This document shows positions 41,379-50,559 of a stretch of 64,000 bases of DNA, piece by piece. The stretch covers positions 64,001 to 128,000 of the IMG/VR virus record IMGVR_UViG_3300023174_006137; one strand, written 5' to 3'. The position numbers were made by a program, and so were the translations under genes. The notes beneath the pieces are model-generated. The model was not told the DNA's origin. It searched no databases and saw nothing but the letters and a program-made list of their open reading frames with translations. The stretch comes from a virus. Within the stretch, counting starts at the first letter, position 1. Every line of letters starts with the position of its first letter.

Positions 41379-42962
41379 TTAATTTTTATAACTATCTTTT
41401 AAAGAAACTGTTTTTATAAAACTTCCATCTAAATCTTTGGTATAATAACCATTTCTTACAAATTGTGCAGCTTTACCAACTTCACAATTATCAATATTTA
41501 ATTCACTATAAATTATAGTTTCATGTATTACATCATTCTTTATTTCACAATTATTATCTAAAAATAAATCTTCATACTCCTTAACCATAATTTCTTTATT
41601 ATATAACGCAGAAACCCAGTGAATTGTTCCTTTTACTTTTCTATCTGACTTGCCAGATTTTGTATCTACATCAATAGTACATCTTATTTCAATTATATTA
41701 CCAATGCTATCTTTGATGATTTCATTTGCTTTTATAATATAAGCACCTTTTAATCTAACTTCGCCACCTAATTTTAAACGATAATATTTCTTATCGGCTT
41801 CTTCTCTAAAATCTTCATTTTCAATATAGATTTCTTTTGTAAAAATAACTTCTCTTTTACCATCATTTGGATTTTCAGGATTATTTTCAATTTCACAAAT
41901 TTCAGAACCTTCATAATTCGTTAAAACAACCTTAATAGGATTGAAAATGCACATATATCGATATGCTATTTTATTTAAATGATTCCTTAAACATTCTTCT
42001 AATAATTTATAATCAATTACAGATTCTCTTTTAGTATAACCAATGATTTCACAGAAATTTTTAATAGATTCTGGAGTATAGCCTCTTCTTTTTAACCCAG
42101 ATAATGTTAATAATCTTGGATCGTTTAATGTATACCCTTCTTCAATCAAAGACTTAAACTTCCTTTTACTCATTAAATGATTAACAACATTCAATCTAGC
42201 AAATTCGGTTTCTTCTGGTAAATTATTTTCTAAATCTAAATTATTTAATATCCAATTATAAAGAGGACGATGTAATTCAAATTCCAAAGTGCATAAAGAA
42301 TCTGTTATTCCTTCTATGTAATCTGAAATAGGATGAGCAAAATCATACATAGGATAAATACACCATTTATTACCAGTATTATGATGTTCTTCTTTAATTA
42401 TTCTATATATGATAGGATCTCTCATGCACATTATCGGACTTGACATATCAATTTTCAATCTCAAAGTGCAATGACTTTCTCCATAGATACCATTTTTCAT
42501 ATTTTCAAATCTATATAAATTATCCTCAATACTTCTATTTCTATAGATAGAATCTATACCTGGTTTCACTAAATCTCCTTTATTATTGGCTATTTCTTCG
42601 GAAGTTGAATCATCAACATAAGCTAACCCTTTATTTATTAATTTAACAGTACAATTATAAATATAATCAAAATAATTGGATGTATATTCTATTTTGGAAG
42701 GGTTAAAGCCTAACCATTTAATATCTGCTAAAATTGCATCAATATATTCGGATTTTTCTGCACAAGGATTTGTGTCATCAAATCTTAAATTACATGAGCC
42801 ATTATATTTTTCCGCTAAACCAAAATTTAAACACATCGATTTTGCATGACCGAGATGTAAAATAAAATTGGGTTCCGGTGGAAAACGCAATACTGGATTG
42901 ATTCCATTATTTACTTTTTCTAATATTTTTTCTTCTATAAAATTCATAATTTTTAATACCAT
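41379..42962 (-). CDS. glnS: Glutaminyl-tRNA synthetase
   Basis: RFPPEPN, HLGH, RFDDTNP, YPMYDFAH, CTLEF, MSKRK, KVKGTIHWVS. Confidence 0.95.
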   Translation of the reverse strand: MVLKIMNFIEEKILEKVNNGINPVLRFPPEPNFILHLGHAKSMCLNFGLAEKYNGSCNLRFDDTNPCAEKSEYIDAILADIKWLGFNPSKIEYTSNYFDYIYNCTVKLINKGLAYVDDSTSEEIANNKGDLVKPGIDSIYRNRSIEDNLYRFENMKNGIYGESHCTLRLKIDMSSPIMCMRDPIIYRIIKEEHHNTGNKWCIYPMYDFAHPISDYIEGITDSLCTLEFELHRPLYNWILNNLDLENNLPEETEFARLNVVNHLMSKRKFKSLIEEGYTLNDPRLLTLSGLKRRGYTPESIKNFCEIIGYTKRESVIDYKLLEECLRNHLNKIAYRYMCIFNPIKVVLTNYEGSEICEIENNPENPNDGKREVIFTKEIYIENEDFREEADKKYYRLKLGGEVRLKGAYIIKANEIIKDSIGNIIEIRCTIDVDTKSGKSDRKVKGTIHWVSALYNKEIMVKEYEDLFLDNNCEIKNDVIHETIIYSELNIDNCEVGKAAQFVRNGYYTKDLDGSFIKTVSLKDSYKN

Positions 42963-42966
42963 TTTG

Positions 42967-43037
42967 TAATCCCATACTGGAACGATCAGTATTCTTCAGG
43001 GTCAAAACCTGACGCATCACCTTAATGCTTTGGGATT
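42967..43037 (-). tRNA. tRNA-Gln(UUG)
   Basis: Cloverleaf; anticodon arm TCAGG TTTTGAC CCTGA. Confidence 0.8.
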
Positions 43038-43044
43038 ATATTTG

Positions 43045-43116
43045 TAGTCGGACTAGGAGTCAAACCCAGTCTACGAAGGCCAAATCTTCGTGTGCGCATC
43101 GGTACACTATCCAACT
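43045..43116 (-). tRNA. tRNA-Gln(UUG)
   Basis: Anticodon arm CGAAG ATTTGGC CTTCG. Confidence 0.75.
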
Positions 43117-43122
43117 ATGTAG

Positions 43123-43205
43123 TTGCCAAGACAGGACTCGAACCTGTATTTACTTCTCGTCCTCCGCTTTCAAAGAGCGGGATGCTACCATTACACCACT
43201 TGGCA
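43123..43205 (-). tRNA. tRNA-Gln(UUG), long variable region
   Basis: CCGCT CTTTGAA AGCGG; U1-A72. Confidence 0.85.
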
Positions 43206-43207
43206 AT

Positions 43208-43243
43208 AAAAAAACCGTTCAATCAAATCAGATTGAACGGTTT
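43208..43243 (-). terminator. Attenuator terminator of the Gln module
   Basis: AAACCGTTCAATC tgattt GATTGAACGGTTT followed by a U tract. Confidence 0.9.
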
Positions 43244-43264
43244 AGACAATAAAATCTCACACCA

Positions 43265-43312
43265 TCAATCTGGTTTAAATAATTGTTGTTGTTGAGAAGT
43301 TAAAGTTTTCAT
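43265..43312 (-). promoter_or_regulatory. Leader peptide MKTLTSQQQQLFKPD (Gln attenuator)
   Basis: Four tandem CAA codons; 3' CAGATTGA is complementary to terminator TCAATCTG. Confidence 0.8.
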
Positions 43313-44191
43313 TTTTTTATAATAATTTATAAATTTTTCTATTTCAGTTTTTATATATTCTTTTCCTGCTTCGTTATTTATTGATTGCCATTTTATTCTA
43401 TAAATATTAAAATGTTTTAATAAATTTTTATCTCTTTCATTATCATGTTCAACTCTATATTCATGTTGTTTACCATCTATTTCTAAATCAATATTTCCTT
43501 CTTTAATATAGAAATCTAAAAAATAATTTCCATTTCCTTCTATATTATATTCTTTTTTTATTATAGTTTTATTAGGCTCATATTTTATGCCATTGTTTTC
43601 TAATACCATTTTGAAAAACTTTTCTGGATAACTTTCAATATTTCTTGATTGCCAACCTTTATGTGTTCCATTTTTTATTCTTTCTTTAACTGAATCTCTT
43701 AATTTATTTTTATATTCCTCGCTTGTAAATTGACACTTTTTACTACAATATTTTCGATTAATATTTTTTCCAGTATATGTTTTTTTACAATTGGGACATT
43801 CTTTTATGTATTCCTCTTCATTATATTTTTTATTCCACGGAATATTATTTTTTAATGTATTAGATATTTTTTTACATCTTTCCTCATATTTTTCTTTATC
43901 AAAATTAGTATTATTTTTACCATGTTGATAATAAGAATTTGAACATGACGATGAACATGTTTTCTTACCATTTTCTGTTGTTTCAAATTCGTTAAAACAA
44001 ATAGGACAAATAAGTTTAATTTTTTGGTATTTTCTATTTTTGTTTTTATTTTCAAAAATAGATTTATTAAATCCATTTTGTTCTAAAACTTCTGCTGCCT
44101 TTTTATTGCTTCGTCCATTAGAATAACCATATAATTTTATGGCTAAGTCATTAATGGAAAAACTTTCATTTATAATTTTAATGATATCCAT
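43265..44191 (-). CDS. Homing-endonuclease-like protein (Zn fingers + DUF559/Vsr-like nuclease), in frame with the Gln leader
   Basis: CxxC/CSxxC repeats, SYPE, FLDFY...LEIDGKQH...RD; start set at ATG 44191 after AATATATA. Confidence 0.75.
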   Translation of the reverse strand: MDIIKIINESFSINDLAIKLYGYSNGRSNKKAAEVLEQNGFNKSIFENKNKNRKYQKIKLICPICFNEFETTENGKKTCSSSCSNSYYQHGKNNTNFDKEKYEERCKKISNTLKNNIPWNKKYNEEEYIKECPNCKKTYTGKNINRKYCSKKCQFTSEEYKNKLRDSVKERIKNGTHKGWQSRNIESYPEKFFKMVLENNGIKYEPNKTIIKKEYNIEGNGNYFLDFYIKEGNIDLEIDGKQHEYRVEHDNERDKNLLKHFNIYRIKWQSINNEAGKEYIKTEIEKFINYYKKMKTLTSQQQQLFKPD

Positions 44192-44232
44192 AAGATATAT
44201 ATTAAAATTGTCGGAGAAAGTTTTTCCGAACC

Positions 44233-44311
44233 TGGTCGAGAAGGTGAGATTCGAACTCACGAGTTGTCTTGGTCCCAAACCAAGCCGGGTACCTGACTCC
44301 CGAACTTCTCG
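44233..44311 (-). tRNA. tRNA-Pro(UGG)
   Basis: CTTGG TTTGGGA CCAAG; encoded CCA. Confidence 0.85.
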
Positions 44312-44317
44312 TTTTTG

Positions 44318-44391
44318 CGGTCTGTACCGGGTACGATCCGGCAACCTTCCCCGTGACAGGGGGATATTGTATCCATTTCTACTAACAGACC
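44318..44391 (-). tRNA. tRNA-Asp(GUC)
   Basis: TCCCC CTGTCAC GGGGA; G73. Confidence 0.85.
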
Positions 44392-44399
44392 ATTTTTTG

Positions 44400-44477
44400 C
44401 AGTGACGACGGGACTCGAACCCGCAAACCTCCCGATAGACAGTCGGGCATTCTGACCTAAAATTGAACTACGCCACT
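44400..44477 (-). tRNA. tRNA-Asp(GUC)
   Basis: CCCGA CTGTCTA TCGGG; G73. Confidence 0.85.
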
Positions 44478-44483
44478 ATTTCG

Positions 44484-44568
44484 TCTGGGTGACAGGGCTC
44501 GAACCTGCATAAGATGTTAATCATTCTCCTGTCCAAGAGGAGTCGGCTTCCATTGCCTTCACACCCAG
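44484..44568 (-). tRNA. tRNA-Pro(UGG), long variable region
   Basis: CTCCT CTTGGAC AGGAG; C1-G72, A73. Confidence 0.8.
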
Positions 44569-44573
44569 AAATT

Positions 44574-44607
44574 AAAAAAACCTATTAGCTTTTGACTAAC
44601 AGGTTTT
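44574..44607 (-). terminator. Attenuator terminator of the Pro/Asp module
   Basis: AAAACCTGTTAG tcaaaag CTAATAGGTTTTTTT. Confidence 0.85.
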
Positions 44608-44631
44608 AAATAATACAATTTAAAAAATCGT

Positions 44632-44721
44632 TTATATAAACACATAGTTAGTCCACTCCTTATCAGGATCCTGATCCGGTTGTTGTTGTGGAACTACTTG
44701 TATGTTTATATTGTTTTTCAT
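44632..44721 (-). promoter_or_regulatory. Leader peptide MKNNINIQVVPQQQPDQDPDKEWTNYVFI
   Basis: 10-codon P/Q/D-only tract; GACTAAC is complementary to terminator GTTAGTC; promoter at 44783-44813. Confidence 0.8.
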
Positions 44722-44782
44722 TTTATTATAGTATATATTGTTTTTAAAAAATGCTTTTTTGCTATTGTTTAATTTTGTAGTG

Positions 44783-44813
44783 CAAAGATACATAAAAGTT
44801 TGAAATCAGCAAA
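44783..44813 (-). promoter_or_regulatory. Bacteroidota-type promoter of the Pro/Asp/Gln tRNA operon
   Basis: TTTG-N19-TATCTTTG. Confidence 0.8.
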
Positions 44814-44867
44814 AATTTTTTTTTTAATTTTTACATATTAATTTGCATAATATAATATATAGTAAAT

Positions 44868-46751
44868 ATGGATAAAGTAATTCTTGATACTACGAATAAT
44901 GAAACAATTATTAAACCAGTTTATATCTATAAAGTTTTCAAAATAAAAGATATTGAAATACTTGGTAGAGGTGATACTGATAATTTAGATATTTATTATC
45001 GTTTTTCACAAGATTATGGTAGAACAATTTCGGATTTTATTCTTTTCACAAAAGAAAATATTATTTCAGAAAGAATTAATCCAATTCGTTTTTTCCAAAT
45101 TGAGTATTATTTAAGATATACCGGAACTTCTACCGCTACTATCTTTGATATAAATTTAGTTGGCGATTTCCAAAATGTATCATTAGACGGACAAAAAAGT
45201 AATGTATATGGCATAAGAGAAAACTGCAATTGCCTTATTGCTGGTTTAATTTGTGACCCTTCAACTTTACCAGAAGGTATGCCACCAGGTGGAATATCAA
45301 GTATGTTAATGTCTAACTATAATACTGAATCGACTAATTTGCCTGCTTTAAATAGCGAACAAATTGCTAATTTATATAATCCATATCAACAAGCACAAGC
45401 ACTTACTTTATTTAATAAAATGAGTAATGATGTTTCTAATTTATTTGGGCATGATGTTATTTATGTATTAACGGATCCAGATCAAAATGGAACTGATTAT
45501 ACATTCCATGAATATACTATACAAAATTATATTTGTGATGCTAAATTAAAAGTAAATGTTGATAATAACCAATTTCCAGATAATACCGGTGCTTTAAATA
45601 ATTTTGATTTATCTTTATTTGATAGTTTTGAAATTAATATAACAAAAGATGCTTTTAAAGCGGCTTTTGGTATTGAAAAAAGACCAGGTTTAAATGATGT
45701 TATATGGTTTTGTAATATAAATAAATTATATACTATTGAACATGCACAGGCAATAAGAAATTTTAATAATTATTCAATCTACTATAAAGTGATACTTAAA
45801 AAATTCAATCAAAAAGCAAACATTATTGGAGCAACACAAGAAATACAAGATGTGCTGGATAATTTAACAAAAAATACCACATTAGAAGAATTAATGGGGC
45901 TAGAGAATATGCAAGATAAAAAGGCAACCGCAAATAACGAACAATTAAGACCGGCAAATAAAGCACAAGAAACTTTAAGAGTTGATATTTATTCAAATAT
46001 AGAACAAGAAATTATACAAAATGCTTCAGTGACAGTTGCTAAAACTTGTTATGAAATGTCAACGGTTCAATTTAACGAACCAGGTGTTGTATATAGAAAC
46101 TTTAAATTTTTCTATCAAAAATCAGACAATATAGGTTTTAGTTGTTGGTTTAATATAAATAATTTAACTATGAACGATACTTACCATTTCTTTAATTATA
46201 TGGATGTTTCAAATAATGGTTTTAAGTTTTATATGTTAGGAAATAGTATCTTTGTTAATCTTAACGGTGTAGCAAACGAATTTAGTTTAATAGATGAAAA
46301 TTGTAATAATGCTAATTTAGCAAGTAATGTTTTATCAGAAAATGTATGGTATGCTTTGGTAGTTAATATAAATCAAAGATTAAATGGTTTAGAGGTTTAT
46401 TTATATAAGAGAAATGTTGATTACGAAGAAGATGCTGAATCATTATCGTCATCTAAATTAAAATTAGTAAACAAAGTAATTAAGGGTGTTGAACCAAGTA
46501 TTTTAGATATATCACCAGATACTAATGCCAATATATTAGGTTCTGATATGAAAATCACTAATTTAAGATTGTTTAATGATGTTATACCAGAAGCACAACA
46601 TAATAAAATGTTAAACTTATTCTTAATAGGTGCTGATTATAAATATGCCATATTTACAGATAATGCAAACCAAGATGCAAATATGCCATCTAATATAGAT
46701 AGCAGAATAAATTATAATAAAATTAGAAGAGGAACTGGATTAGATAACTAA
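44868..46751 (+). CDS. Virion protein: T4 gp14 neck-like domain + LamG-like C-terminus
   Basis: FGHDVIYV, KRPGLNDVIWF...KLY; FSCWFN, NVWYALVV, ITNLRLFN. Confidence 0.55.
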   Translation: MDKVILDTTNNETIIKPVYIYKVFKIKDIEILGRGDTDNLDIYYRFSQDYGRTISDFILFTKENIISERINPIRFFQIEYYLRYTGTSTATIFDINLVGDFQNVSLDGQKSNVYGIRENCNCLIAGLICDPSTLPEGMPPGGISSMLMSNYNTESTNLPALNSEQIANLYNPYQQAQALTLFNKMSNDVSNLFGHDVIYVLTDPDQNGTDYTFHEYTIQNYICDAKLKVNVDNNQFPDNTGALNNFDLSLFDSFEINITKDAFKAAFGIEKRPGLNDVIWFCNINKLYTIEHAQAIRNFNNYSIYYKVILKKFNQKANIIGATQEIQDVLDNLTKNTTLEELMGLENMQDKKATANNEQLRPANKAQETLRVDIYSNIEQEIIQNASVTVAKTCYEMSTVQFNEPGVVYRNFKFFYQKSDNIGFSCWFNINNLTMNDTYHFFNYMDVSNNGFKFYMLGNSIFVNLNGVANEFSLIDENCNNANLASNVLSENVWYALVVNINQRLNGLEVYLYKRNVDYEEDAESLSSSKLKLVNKVIKGVEPSILDISPDTNANILGSDMKITNLRLFNDVIPEAQHNKMLNLFLIGADYKYAIFTDNANQDANMPSNIDSRINYNKIRRGTGLDN

Positions 46752-47050
46752 ATTTTATCAGTAATTTTAGAAATACTTTTATCAATATCTGCAAAAGATG
46801 GAATAGAATTTCCTATATAAATAAATGCAATATTCTTATTCTTAACTATTGATTTCCTAACAGATTCTTTCATTAATCTTTTGATGTAATTTCTATCAAC
46901 CGCTCTTTTGAACTTTTTAGAAGAAACCGCAAAAAGAAATGAACTATTAGATTCAGATTCTAAAATTTTAACCATTATTACATCACTTGAAATGGTTTTA
47001 CCATTTTTAAACAATTCGTCAATTATTATCTTATTTTTTAAAGTTTTCAT
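46748..47050 (-). CDS. rnpA: Ribonuclease P protein component
   Basis: FAVSSKKFKRAVDRNYIKRLMKES (RNR motif), LFKNGK, AFIY. Confidence 0.85.
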   Translation of the reverse strand: MKTLKNKIIIDELFKNGKTISSDVIMVKILESESNSSFLFAVSSKKFKRAVDRNYIKRLMKESVRKSIVKNKNIAFIYIGNSIPSFADIDKSISKITDKI

Positions 47051-49462: not shown

Positions 49463-49517
49463 TTTAAATAATTTATTTTTGTGATCATACTAAAGATATT
49501 TCACTCTAATATGTCTG

Positions 49518-49590
49518 TAGTTCCAACGAGATTCGAACTCGTATCATAATTTTAGGAGAATTATACCTTATCCTGTTAGGCTATGGAACC
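49518..49590 (-). tRNA. tRNA-Arg(CCU)
   Basis: TAATT CTCCTAA AATTA. Confidence 0.85.
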
Positions 49591-49596
49591 ATTTTG

Positions 49597-49682
49597 TACC
49601 GCTAGCAGGACTCGAACCTGCACTATCTTTACAGAAAACGGATTATGAGTCCGTCACAATTACCACATCTGCTCATAGCGGC
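49597..49682 (-). tRNA. tRNA-Met(CAU), long variable arm
   Basis: ACGGA CTCATAA TCCGT. Confidence 0.8.
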
Positions 49683-49688
49683 ATATTT

Positions 49689-49967
49689 TTATACTCTTTT
49701 ACTTCTCCATTTAATAAACTTTTTCACATCAGGATGTTCTAAAAGTTTTTCCTTTGTATTATATGTTAAGCCCATTTCTTTTTCAGTTATGAACCGATGT
49801 ATTTGCCCATGACAATAAAATTTACATATCCAAATACCATGATTTTTCAAATAATCTTTATCATAATTCTTTTTGAAGAACTTATTTGAATGCAAAGTCC
49901 TTGGAATTAAATGATGAAAATTTAAATAATCATTTGTTGAGCCACACAATTCACATTTATCTATCAT
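49689..49967 (-). CDS. Small HNH-like protein
   Basis: CELC...FHHLIP...IC..CH..IH. Confidence 0.7.
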   Translation of the reverse strand: MIDKCELCGSTNDYLNFHHLIPRTLHSNKFFKKNYDKDYLKNHGIWICKFYCHGQIHRFITEKEMGLTYNTKEKLLEHPDVKKFIKWRSKRV

Positions 49968-50107
49968 AATATATCATAATAATACCAAGTATTATCATAT
50001 TTTTCATTAACAATTTTTGTTATTTCATCTTTTTCCAATTCTTCATTAATAAAAAATGATTCATTTTTCAAATATTCTAAATCAAAATAAACTACTATTT
50101 CAATCAT
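49964..50107 (-). CDS. Small hypothetical protein (47 aa)
   Basis: MIEIVVYFDLEY...; ATGA-coupled to the HNH gene. Confidence 0.4.
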   Translation of the reverse strand: MIEIVVYFDLEYLKNESFFINEELEKDEITKIVNEKYDNTWYYYDIL

Positions 50108-50154
50108 AATTTTTTTTTTATTTTAATCAATATCTATACCTTTTTGAATTACTA

Positions 50155-50182
50155 ACTCCTGCGTATACCAATTCCGCCATAT
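50155..50182 (-). pseudogene. tRNA remnant (D-arm fragment)
   Basis: TGGCGGAATTGGTATACGC without anticodon or T arm. Confidence 0.5.
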
Positions 50183-50190
50183 GATAATCG

Positions 50191-50263
50191 TAGCTCTGAT
50201 GGGAGTCGAACCCACACATTTCCGAGTTTGAATCGGTTGCCTCGCCAGTTGGGCTACAGAGCC
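50191..50263 (-). tRNA. tRNA-Leu(CAA), short variable loop
   Basis: CCGA TTCAAAC TCGG. Confidence 0.75.
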
Positions 50264-50269
50264 ATTTTG

Positions 50270-50351
50270 TGCAGAAGAAGGGAGTCGAACCCTCACACCT
50301 TTCGGCACAGCAACCTCAATGCTGCGTGTTTACCAATTACACCACTTCTGC
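50270..50351 (-). tRNA. tRNA-Leu(GAG)
   Basis: CAGCA TTGAGGT TGCTG; long variable arm. Confidence 0.9.
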
Positions 50352-50357
50352 AATTTG

Positions 50358-50433
50358 TAGCACTCCTGGGATTTGAACCCAGAACTCTCAGGTTCTAAAG
50401 CTGAGTCCTCTGCTCTTGTTGGGATAGAGTGCC
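50358..50433 (-). tRNA. tRNA-Leu(UAG), short variable loop
   Basis: TCAGC TTTAGAA CCTGA (C31.C39 mismatch). Confidence 0.65.
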
Positions 50434-50438
50434 ATAAT

Positions 50439-50468
50439 AAAAAAATCCCGTCAAATTGACGGGATTTT
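50439..50468 (-). terminator. Attenuator terminator of the Leu/Met/Arg module
   Basis: AAAATCCCGTCA att TGACGGGATTTTTTT. Confidence 0.9.
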
Positions 50469-50490
50469 AAATAATCTTAAAAATAAGAAT

Positions 50491-50559
50491 TTACATAAGA
50501 ATCCCGTCCAATGTTTCCATTAGATTAAGCAAATTCATATTTAGATTCCTATTTCTCAT
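50491..50559 (-). promoter_or_regulatory. Leader peptide MRNRNLNMNLLNLMETLDGILM
   Basis: Uses AGG, CTA, TTG, CTT and ATG codons; contains GACGGGATT complementary to the terminator 5' arm; promoter at 50592-50622. Confidence 0.8.

Follow-up and report, generated by a model that had tools for sequence, protein, structure and literature searches.

The IMG/VR virus record IMGVR_UViG_3300023174_006137 has 159,491 base pairs (bp) and 26% G+C, and carries at least 39 tRNA genes, which all lie on one strand and jointly cover 20 of the 20 amino acids. The window analysed here is the part of this record from position 64,001 to position 128,000 (64,000 nucleotides (nt), numbered from its own first letter), and we concentrated on an operon of tRNA genes and glnS, the gene for glutaminyl-tRNA synthetase (GlnRS), at 44813-41379, which lies wholly on the minus strand. 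The operon is built in two tiers (Table 1). In the first, a promoter of the Bacteroidota type is followed by a short open reading frame (ORF) for a leader peptide, an intrinsic terminator and four tRNA genes, while in the second a shorter leader ORF and another terminator precede three tRNA-Gln genes and glnS. This arrangement agrees with an original prediction made from the letters of the DNA, which had described a leader tract with Pro, Gln and Asp codons (present at 44691-44662) ahead of a terminator and of tRNAs Pro, Asp, Asp and Pro, and, further down the same strand, a second attenuator with only Gln codons, three tRNA-Gln genes and glnS, all of which we found at 43312-41379. An endonuclease-like ORF between the tiers was absent from that prediction. 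From this anatomy, and from the folding models described below, we consider it likely that the phage tRNA/synthetase operon is controlled by a two-stage, ribosome-mediated (leader-peptide) transcription attenuator.

Table 1. Elements of the two-tier operon in window coordinates, all on the minus strand.
Feature	Coordinates	Basis or remark
Tier-1 promoter, Bacteroidota sigma-A type, TTTG-N19-TATCTTTG (consensus TTTG-N19-TAnnTTTG)	44813-44783	Read from sequence
Leader ORF 1, 29 codons + stop, MKNNINIQVVPQQQPDQDPDKEWTNYVFI	44721-44632	Starts 62 nt after the promoter motif
Segment 1 (UAGU.CCAC), partner of segment 2 in untranslated RNA	44696-44688	Minimum-free-energy fold
Regulatory tract PQQQPDQDPD (CCA CAA CAA CAA CCG GAT CAG GAT CCT GAT)	44691-44662	Leader codons 11-20
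Segment 2 (GUGGACUAAC)	44656-44647	GACUAAC core = antiterminator 5′ strand
Intrinsic terminator 1, 13-bp hairpin	44607-44577	U-run to ~44574; segment 3, GUUAGUC, at 44600-44594
tRNA-Pro(UGG), 86 nt	44568-44483	ARAGORN; Rfam 29.6 bits
tRNA-Asp(GUC)-like, U at position 37	44477-44400	Rfam 52.2 bits; missed by ARAGORN; anticodon read by eye
tRNA-Asp(GUC)	44391-44317	ARAGORN and Rfam
tRNA-Pro(UGG), 79 nt	44311-44233	ARAGORN only
DUF559 endonuclease-like ORF, 308 aa	44191-43265	Pfam; in frame with leader 2, common stop codon
Leader ORF 2, 15 codons, MKTLTSQQQQLFKPD	43312-43265	Four CAA codons at 43294-43283
Antiterminator 2, 5′ strand CAGAUUGA	43272-43265	Stop codon included; partner UCAAUCUG
Intrinsic terminator 2, 13-bp hairpin	43243-43212	U-run to ~43208
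tRNA-Gln(UUG), three genes	43205-42966	ARAGORN; two of three also Rfam
glnS, glutaminyl-tRNA synthetase	42947/42962-41379	Pfam PF00749, PF03950, PF20974; start probably the ATG at 42947, matching relatives

ARAGORN was run at a relaxed threshold, which gives many false positives in AT-rich DNA, and only matches abutting confident tRNAs were retained. Several of the tRNAs have lengths that are unusual for their type (86 and 79 nt for Pro, 84 nt for Gln), and ARAGORN and Rfam disagree on several of them.

To quantify the codon content of the leaders, we took a proteome background from 133 long ORFs, in which Asp, Pro and Gln together have a frequency of 0.12 and Gln alone of 0.029. Leader 1 has 11 Asp, Pro or Gln codons out of 28, ten of them consecutive (binomial p = 2.5e-4), and Gln alone accounts for five of the 28 (p = 1.2e-3), while leader 2 has four Gln codons out of 14 (p = 6e-4). 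Each tRNA array of this genome has the same layout of leader and terminator, which makes seven modules, and in a permutation test each leader was scored on each array by the codons that the tRNAs of that array can read. The true assignment of the seven leaders to the seven arrays is the best of 5040 permutations, both in this genome and in each of G001, LR745206.1 and LR756502.1. The row of the Pro/Asp leader gives a z of 1.9 for its own array and of 4.7 for the Gln array, the latter value being the quantitative form of the match between the Gln codons of leader 1 and the downstream Gln block. In the same four genomes, 28 of 28 terminators before tRNA arrays are preceded by an ORF that ends 17-35 nt ahead of the hairpin.

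These results bear on a reading without any codon sensing, in which the hairpins terminate transcription constitutively or act as insulators, and each short ORF either arose by chance or codes for an independently functional micropeptide. We found no positive point in favour of this reading and hold it to be very improbable. A promoter followed about 210 nt on by a strong terminator, directly before its own genes, would be senseless without regulation, and neither the constant placing of an ORF before each array terminator nor the optimal match of leaders to arrays in four genomes would be expected. Moreover, the peptide sequences drift, whereas their composition follows the tRNA sets.

The pairing proposed in the original prediction is also present in the sequence. 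GACTAAC (44653-44647, within W-T-N codons) is exactly complementary to GTTAGTC (44600-44594) in the 5′ arm of the terminator 1 hairpin. The two terminators have calculated energies of −13.5 kcal/mol (terminator 1) and −17.9 kcal/mol (terminator 2), and both leader regions fold more stably than shuffled sequences, with z = −5.5 for the region of leader 1 (200 shuffles) and z = −5.3 for that of leader 2. In the fold of the untranslated RNA of this genome, segment 1 holds segment 2 and the terminator forms, corresponding to a trp-like state of 1:2 plus 3:4 helices. The codons for D-Q-D-P-D within the tract (44676-44662, minus strand) form a perfect palindrome, ATCAG-GATC-CTGAT, which contains GGATCC and GATC, appears as a small hairpin in the fold and is conserved to the DNA letter in four relatives; besides its coding role, it may serve for pausing or as a structural element.

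Terminator 1 is retained in 13 of 13 orthologues, with compensatory changes at three of 11 stem pairs and none broken. The 7-bp antiterminator is fully paired (100% of cells) in four genomes found via GlnRS, independently of the pairing, against 4-42% in slid controls, and two one-sided changes in these four genomes preserve it through G·U. To assess all modules, the last 30 nt of each ORF plus the spacer were paired against the 5′ arm of the terminator, with 500 shuffles per module. The duplex energy has p < 0.05 in 21 of 28 modules (Fisher 6e-20), although the orthologues are non-independent and combined p-values of this kind overstate the support. The three independently found orthologues of leader 1 have p = 0.012-0.02 and the Gln leaders p = 0.002-0.01, with 0.002 for the CAGAUUGA:UCAAUCUG pairing of leader 2.

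We then modelled the ribosome as a 30-nt footprint on the nascent RNA, ignoring kinetics. For the Gln leaders, the terminator arm is predicted to be pre-paired by the antiterminator as long as the A-site has not passed the Gln run, and not at all when the ribosome is at the last codons or the stop. For leader 1, a 2:3 helix is predicted with the A-site at or before the tract in 13 of 13 orthologues and is gone one to three codons past the tract. With ribosome positions masked, the exact terminator structure has an uninformative equilibrium probability of ~0.5 everywhere, with the terminator dominant, as expected of a kinetic switch. RNAalifold on the leader alignments recovered the terminator only, and no upstream helices. 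In Rfam searches only tRNAs matched at the gathering threshold, no leader family was found at E <= 1 within 42900-44850, and the T-box riboswitch family (RF00230) gave no match.

GlnRS of this genome is 55-58% identical to that of the complete huge-phage genomes LR745206.1 (634,780 bp) and LR756502.1 (642,428 bp), 57-62% in a 385-kb IMG/VR contig, and 69% in the closest relative, L112. The two complete genomes and the 385-kb contig have the promoter, the P/Q/D leader, the terminator, the Pro/Asp tRNAs, the Gln-only leader, its terminator, the Gln tRNAs and glnS, and in them leader 2 stands as a separate ORF of 16-17 codons, 5-7 of which are for Gln. A DNA pattern search gave 13 further IMG/VR stretches, one being the contig of L002 itself and three repeating the leader of another locus. 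Together with the loci reached via GlnRS, these make 13 distinct leader-1 sequences (this genome and 12 orthologues), in which the layout of promoter, leader, terminator and tRNAs is kept along with P, Q and D codons, a conservation that is partly ascertainment, since nine of the 12 further orthologues were found by a pattern requiring GATCAGGAT, GRCTAAY and GTTAGTC. A strict DNA pattern for leader 2 matched only L107 and L108. A metagenome scan for GlnRS gave 80 loci, almost all of them with cellular-type GlnRS of ~50% identity, and 0 with tRNA-Gln directly upstream.

Two architectures can be distinguished among these loci. The two-tier layout, with a Gln-only leader 2 and a terminator before tRNA-Gln, is found in this genome and in L002, L017, L018, L108, L112, L113 and L115, and glnS directly follows the Gln tRNAs in all five two-tier relatives that reach far enough (L002, L017, L018, L112 and L115). 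Four lineages are single-tier, namely L110 (with near-copies L114 and L119), L111, L116 and L117 (with L118): in these, the P/Q/D leader is followed directly by an array that interleaves Gln, Pro and Asp tRNAs, and none of the four has a leader 2. GlnRS was not found on the contigs of the single-tier loci L111, L116, L117 and L119, the last of which has the same leader as L110. Leader 2 and glnS therefore co-occur across loci, which ties the second gate to the synthetase gene. The presence of Gln tRNAs in the first array of the single-tier relatives also explains the Gln codons of leader 1, as the Gln tRNAs belong to the unit. Two other huge phages, LR756501.1 (735 kb) and LR756504.1 (636 kb), group their Gln tRNAs with other tRNAs, and their leaders differ to match; in one example, a leader with Met, Gln, Ile and Glu codons precedes Met, Gln, Ile and Glu tRNAs.

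The single-tier relatives also give grounds for supposing that the attenuators work, but that the Gln codons of leader 1 are a relic of a single-tier ancestor with no present use. In addition, L109 (2601-7916) keeps four Gln codons in leader 1, which is followed only by Asp, Pro and Pro tRNAs and unrelated ORFs; the 5.2 kb downstream contain no Gln tRNA, and the 67-kb contig lacks glnS. We nevertheless judge this explanation improbable, because all two-tier genomes retain three to five Gln codons in leader 1, despite their shifting number and position (PQQQP, PQQPQ, PQPQ, QVQRQ...DQDQ) and a divergence of GlnRS down to 55-69% identity. The leaders of two other nested pairs point in the same direction. 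In relatives, the His/Phe/Trp/Lys and then the Ser/Arg arrays, and likewise the Glu/Tyr and then the Ile/Gly/Ala arrays, are stacked without a promoter between them, and the upstream leader also holds codons of the downstream tier, whereas the downstream leader holds only its own. The enrichment of Ser/Arg codons in three His/Phe/Trp/Lys leaders has p = 0.002, 0.004 and 0.29, and that of Ile/Gly/Ala codons in the one Glu/Tyr leader scored has p = 0.07, so that one of the four cases falls outside the range of 0.002-0.07. Judging from these layouts, nesting appears to be a recurrent design among these phages.

A further question is whether the second tier depends on the first at all. The DUF559 ORF that separates them is probably a mobile insertion, of the homing endonuclease kind. 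L112 (3313-4243) holds a 79%-identical copy with the same in-frame junction with leader 2, and no such insertion is found in the two-tier relatives L002, L017, L018, L113 and L115. Owing to the in-frame junction, ribosomes translating the endonuclease would cross the QQQQ codons and end at the stop codon of leader 2, and the insertion therefore need not disturb sensing. It is conceivable that both attenuators are real and that the Gln block has a promoter to itself, of host type or specific to the phage, in or just upstream of the endonuclease gene, from which most of its transcription starts, leaving leader 1 without a say. Here the tiers are separated by 927 bp of AT-rich DNA with two lone TAnnTTTG boxes inside, huge phages may use promoters outside the searched motif, and the Ser/Arg module of this genome, nested in relatives, has gained its own promoter. 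A phage-specific promoter of another motif may sit inside the endonuclease gene of this genome. However, the full TTTG-N18-20-TAnnTTTG motif does not occur within 44232-43206, and no terminator was found between tRNA-Pro and leader 2 (44232-43243). In L002, L017, L018, L113 and L115 the ATG of leader 2 lies only ~30 nt past the last tRNA of tier 1, a gap that leaves no space for a separate host-type promoter. Since the Gln codons of leader 1 are kept in every two-tier genome as well, we regard independent tiers as unlikely.

In the two-stage attenuator that we favour, transcription would begin at the tier-1 promoter, and ribosomes would translate the 29-codon leader as the polymerase nears terminator 1. 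With plentiful Pro-, Gln- and Asp-tRNAs, the ribosome would cover segment 2 (GACUAAC), the terminator hairpin would form, and the transcript would end at ~44574. If any one of the three is scarce, the ribosome would stall in the PQQQPDQDPD tract, leaving segment 2 free to pair with GUUAGUC, and the polymerase would read through into tRNA-Pro, Asp, Asp, Pro and beyond. The same transcript would then cross the endonuclease ORF into leader 2, where the four CAA are the sole regulatory codons. Only a stall at Gln codons would allow the CAGAUUGA antiterminator to form and the polymerase to pass terminator 2 (~43208) into the three tRNA-Gln genes and glnS. The Gln tRNAs and GlnRS would thus need both gates open, and the Pro/Asp tRNAs only the first. 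As the outputs are the sensed tRNAs, each gate would act as a negative-feedback loop on decoding capacity. The differential response that follows from this anatomy, with Pro or Asp shortage opening tier 1 only and Gln shortage opening both tiers, is probable too, but we hold it a little less firmly than attenuation itself.

Several observations count against this two-stage model, besides the L109 locus, the possible promoter in the endonuclease gene, and the ascertainment and non-independence of the orthologues described above. The leader 1 antiterminator of this genome is short (7 bp, −10.1 kcal/mol), with p = 0.08 relative to shuffles. In the footprint model, its 2:3 helix is lost after codon 15, and stalls at the five final codons of the tract (D Q D P D) do not give the helix. 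In about half of the leader-1 orthologues segment 2 would remain free with a ribosome at the stop, and most orthologues show 2:3 pairing even without a ribosome. Consequently, termination under plenty would depend on timing, which is beyond the model.

The predicted host agrees with this type of control. There are 27 copies of the full promoter motif on the tRNA strand and eight on the opposite strand, compared with 3.4 in shuffles, and the motif corresponds to the Bacteroidota promoter consensus quoted in PMC7366714. Phages larger than 634 kb belong to the Mahaphage clade, with Bacteroidetes as predicted hosts (PMC7162821), which fits with the enrichment of the motif on the tRNA strand. Leader-peptide attenuation has been indicated in Flavobacterium (PMC9723704), and together with the Bacteroidetes prediction this makes such a mechanism plausible in a host of the Bacteroidota type. 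The leader peptides of unrelated arrays have a common N-terminal pattern, M-K/T-N/T-I/L-N, with A-rich codons, which may be a translation-initiation signal for Bacteroidota hosts, poor in Shine-Dalgarno sequences.

Other features were observed around the tRNA arrays, in the window and, outside it, in genome C1. In the region 49517-50559, an HNH-like ORF of 92 aa (49689-49967, minus strand; no Pfam match) and an ORF of 47 aa divide a Leu(UAG, GAG, CAA) array from tRNA-Met and tRNA-Arg(CCU), and the Leu leader (50559-50491) also holds AGG and three internal ATG codons, much as the Pro/Asp leader holds Gln codons. A phage gene for an RNase P protein component (PF00825, E = 3.9e-13) lies at 46748-47050 (minus strand), a few kb from the tRNA arrays. 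Outside the window, at ~137600-137700 of C1, a Lys-rich mini-ORF (MKQIKRKQKQVS) and a hairpin without a U-run lie directly before two tRNA-Lys genes within a longer array, and may be a degenerate or a different kind of gate. Also outside the window, the ~245 nt between tRNA-Ser(GCU) and tRNA-Arg(ACG) at 136303-136548 of C1 resemble a tRNA with a large insertion.

The presence of tRNA genes in phages is usually attributed to codon usage, or to a role as spares against host defences that cleave tRNAs. If the two-stage model is true, the largest known phages gauge their decoding capacity per codon set and make only the tRNAs in short supply, and gates wired in series provide a hierarchical logic in which the synthetase is under a stricter condition than the tRNAs. 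A textbook mechanism would then reach a new class of targets, the leaders would give a direct read-out of the host tRNAs that are limiting during infection, and synthetic biology in Bacteroidota would gain amino-acid-specific sensors that are compact and modular. The comparative pattern, with leader 2 present only with glnS and leaders reshuffled alongside the arrays, yields clear testable predictions. More tentatively, huge Bacteroidota phages might run a genome-wide, codon-resolved monitor of decoding, with every array (all 20 amino acids) behind its own codon list and stacked gates acting as two votes for a costly output such as GlnRS. The main job of such a monitor would be to counter tRNA loss inflicted by the host (anticodon nucleases, tRNA-depleting defences, host shut-off) rather than starvation; we put this forward as a possibility that is more doubtful than not.

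Full-text literature searches, which included PMC7162821 and PMC9723777 on related genomes, gave no account of tRNA genes controlled by leader peptides. A possible precedent, an attenuator-like leader before the E. coli tRNA-Phe gene pheV, was rejected on inspection of MG1655, where the 105-nt spacer has no Phe-rich ORF and no terminator; in modern data the leaders are 3-4 nt long (PMC7049720).

By analogy, the proposed device would belong to a known class of mechanism and work like classical leader-peptide attenuators. It is alike to trpL, hisL, pheL and leuL in having a short ORF near the promoter that contains consecutive regulatory codons, an intrinsic terminator and a mutually exclusive antiterminator, and to the trp attenuator also in the 1:2 helix present in the fold of this genome. 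However, the enterobacterial attenuators regulate enzymes of amino-acid biosynthesis, whereas the phage device would regulate tRNA genes, the sensed molecule being the product, and the phage-borne leaders have no sequence relationship to them and match no Rfam leader family. The ilvGMEDA leader (Ile/Leu/Val) and the thr leader (Thr/Ile) are multivalent attenuators, similar in that one leader samples several amino acids, but the set sampled by a phage leader is exactly that of the downstream tRNA genes, in some cases down to the isoacceptor, and it is reshuffled with the arrays between genomes. In E. coli, the pheM leader, rich in its cognate codon, gates the synthetase genes pheST. This resembles leader 2 (QQQQ) before glnS, which among the loci reaching far enough occurs only with glnS; in the phage, by contrast, the cognate tRNA genes are co-transcribed between the leader and the synthetase gene, and the whole unit lies downstream of another attenuator. 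T-box riboswitches share the aim of controlling aminoacyl-tRNA synthetase and related genes through tRNA charging by antitermination, but they bind uncharged tRNA directly and are translation-free, whereas the regulatory codons of the phage sit in an ORF. The Salmonella mgtCBR leader, with its tandem attenuators (PMC3641672), is alike in having two short ORFs with alternative structures in series on one transcript, one of them sensing Pro codons. In mgtCBR, both are located in one 5′ leader before all structural genes, while here four tRNA genes lie between the gates, which would make the output graded and hierarchical. Relative to these systems, the new aspects are the tRNA genes as targets, the phage carrier, the codon-list leaders that co-vary with the tRNA sets, and the placement of structural genes between stacked gates.

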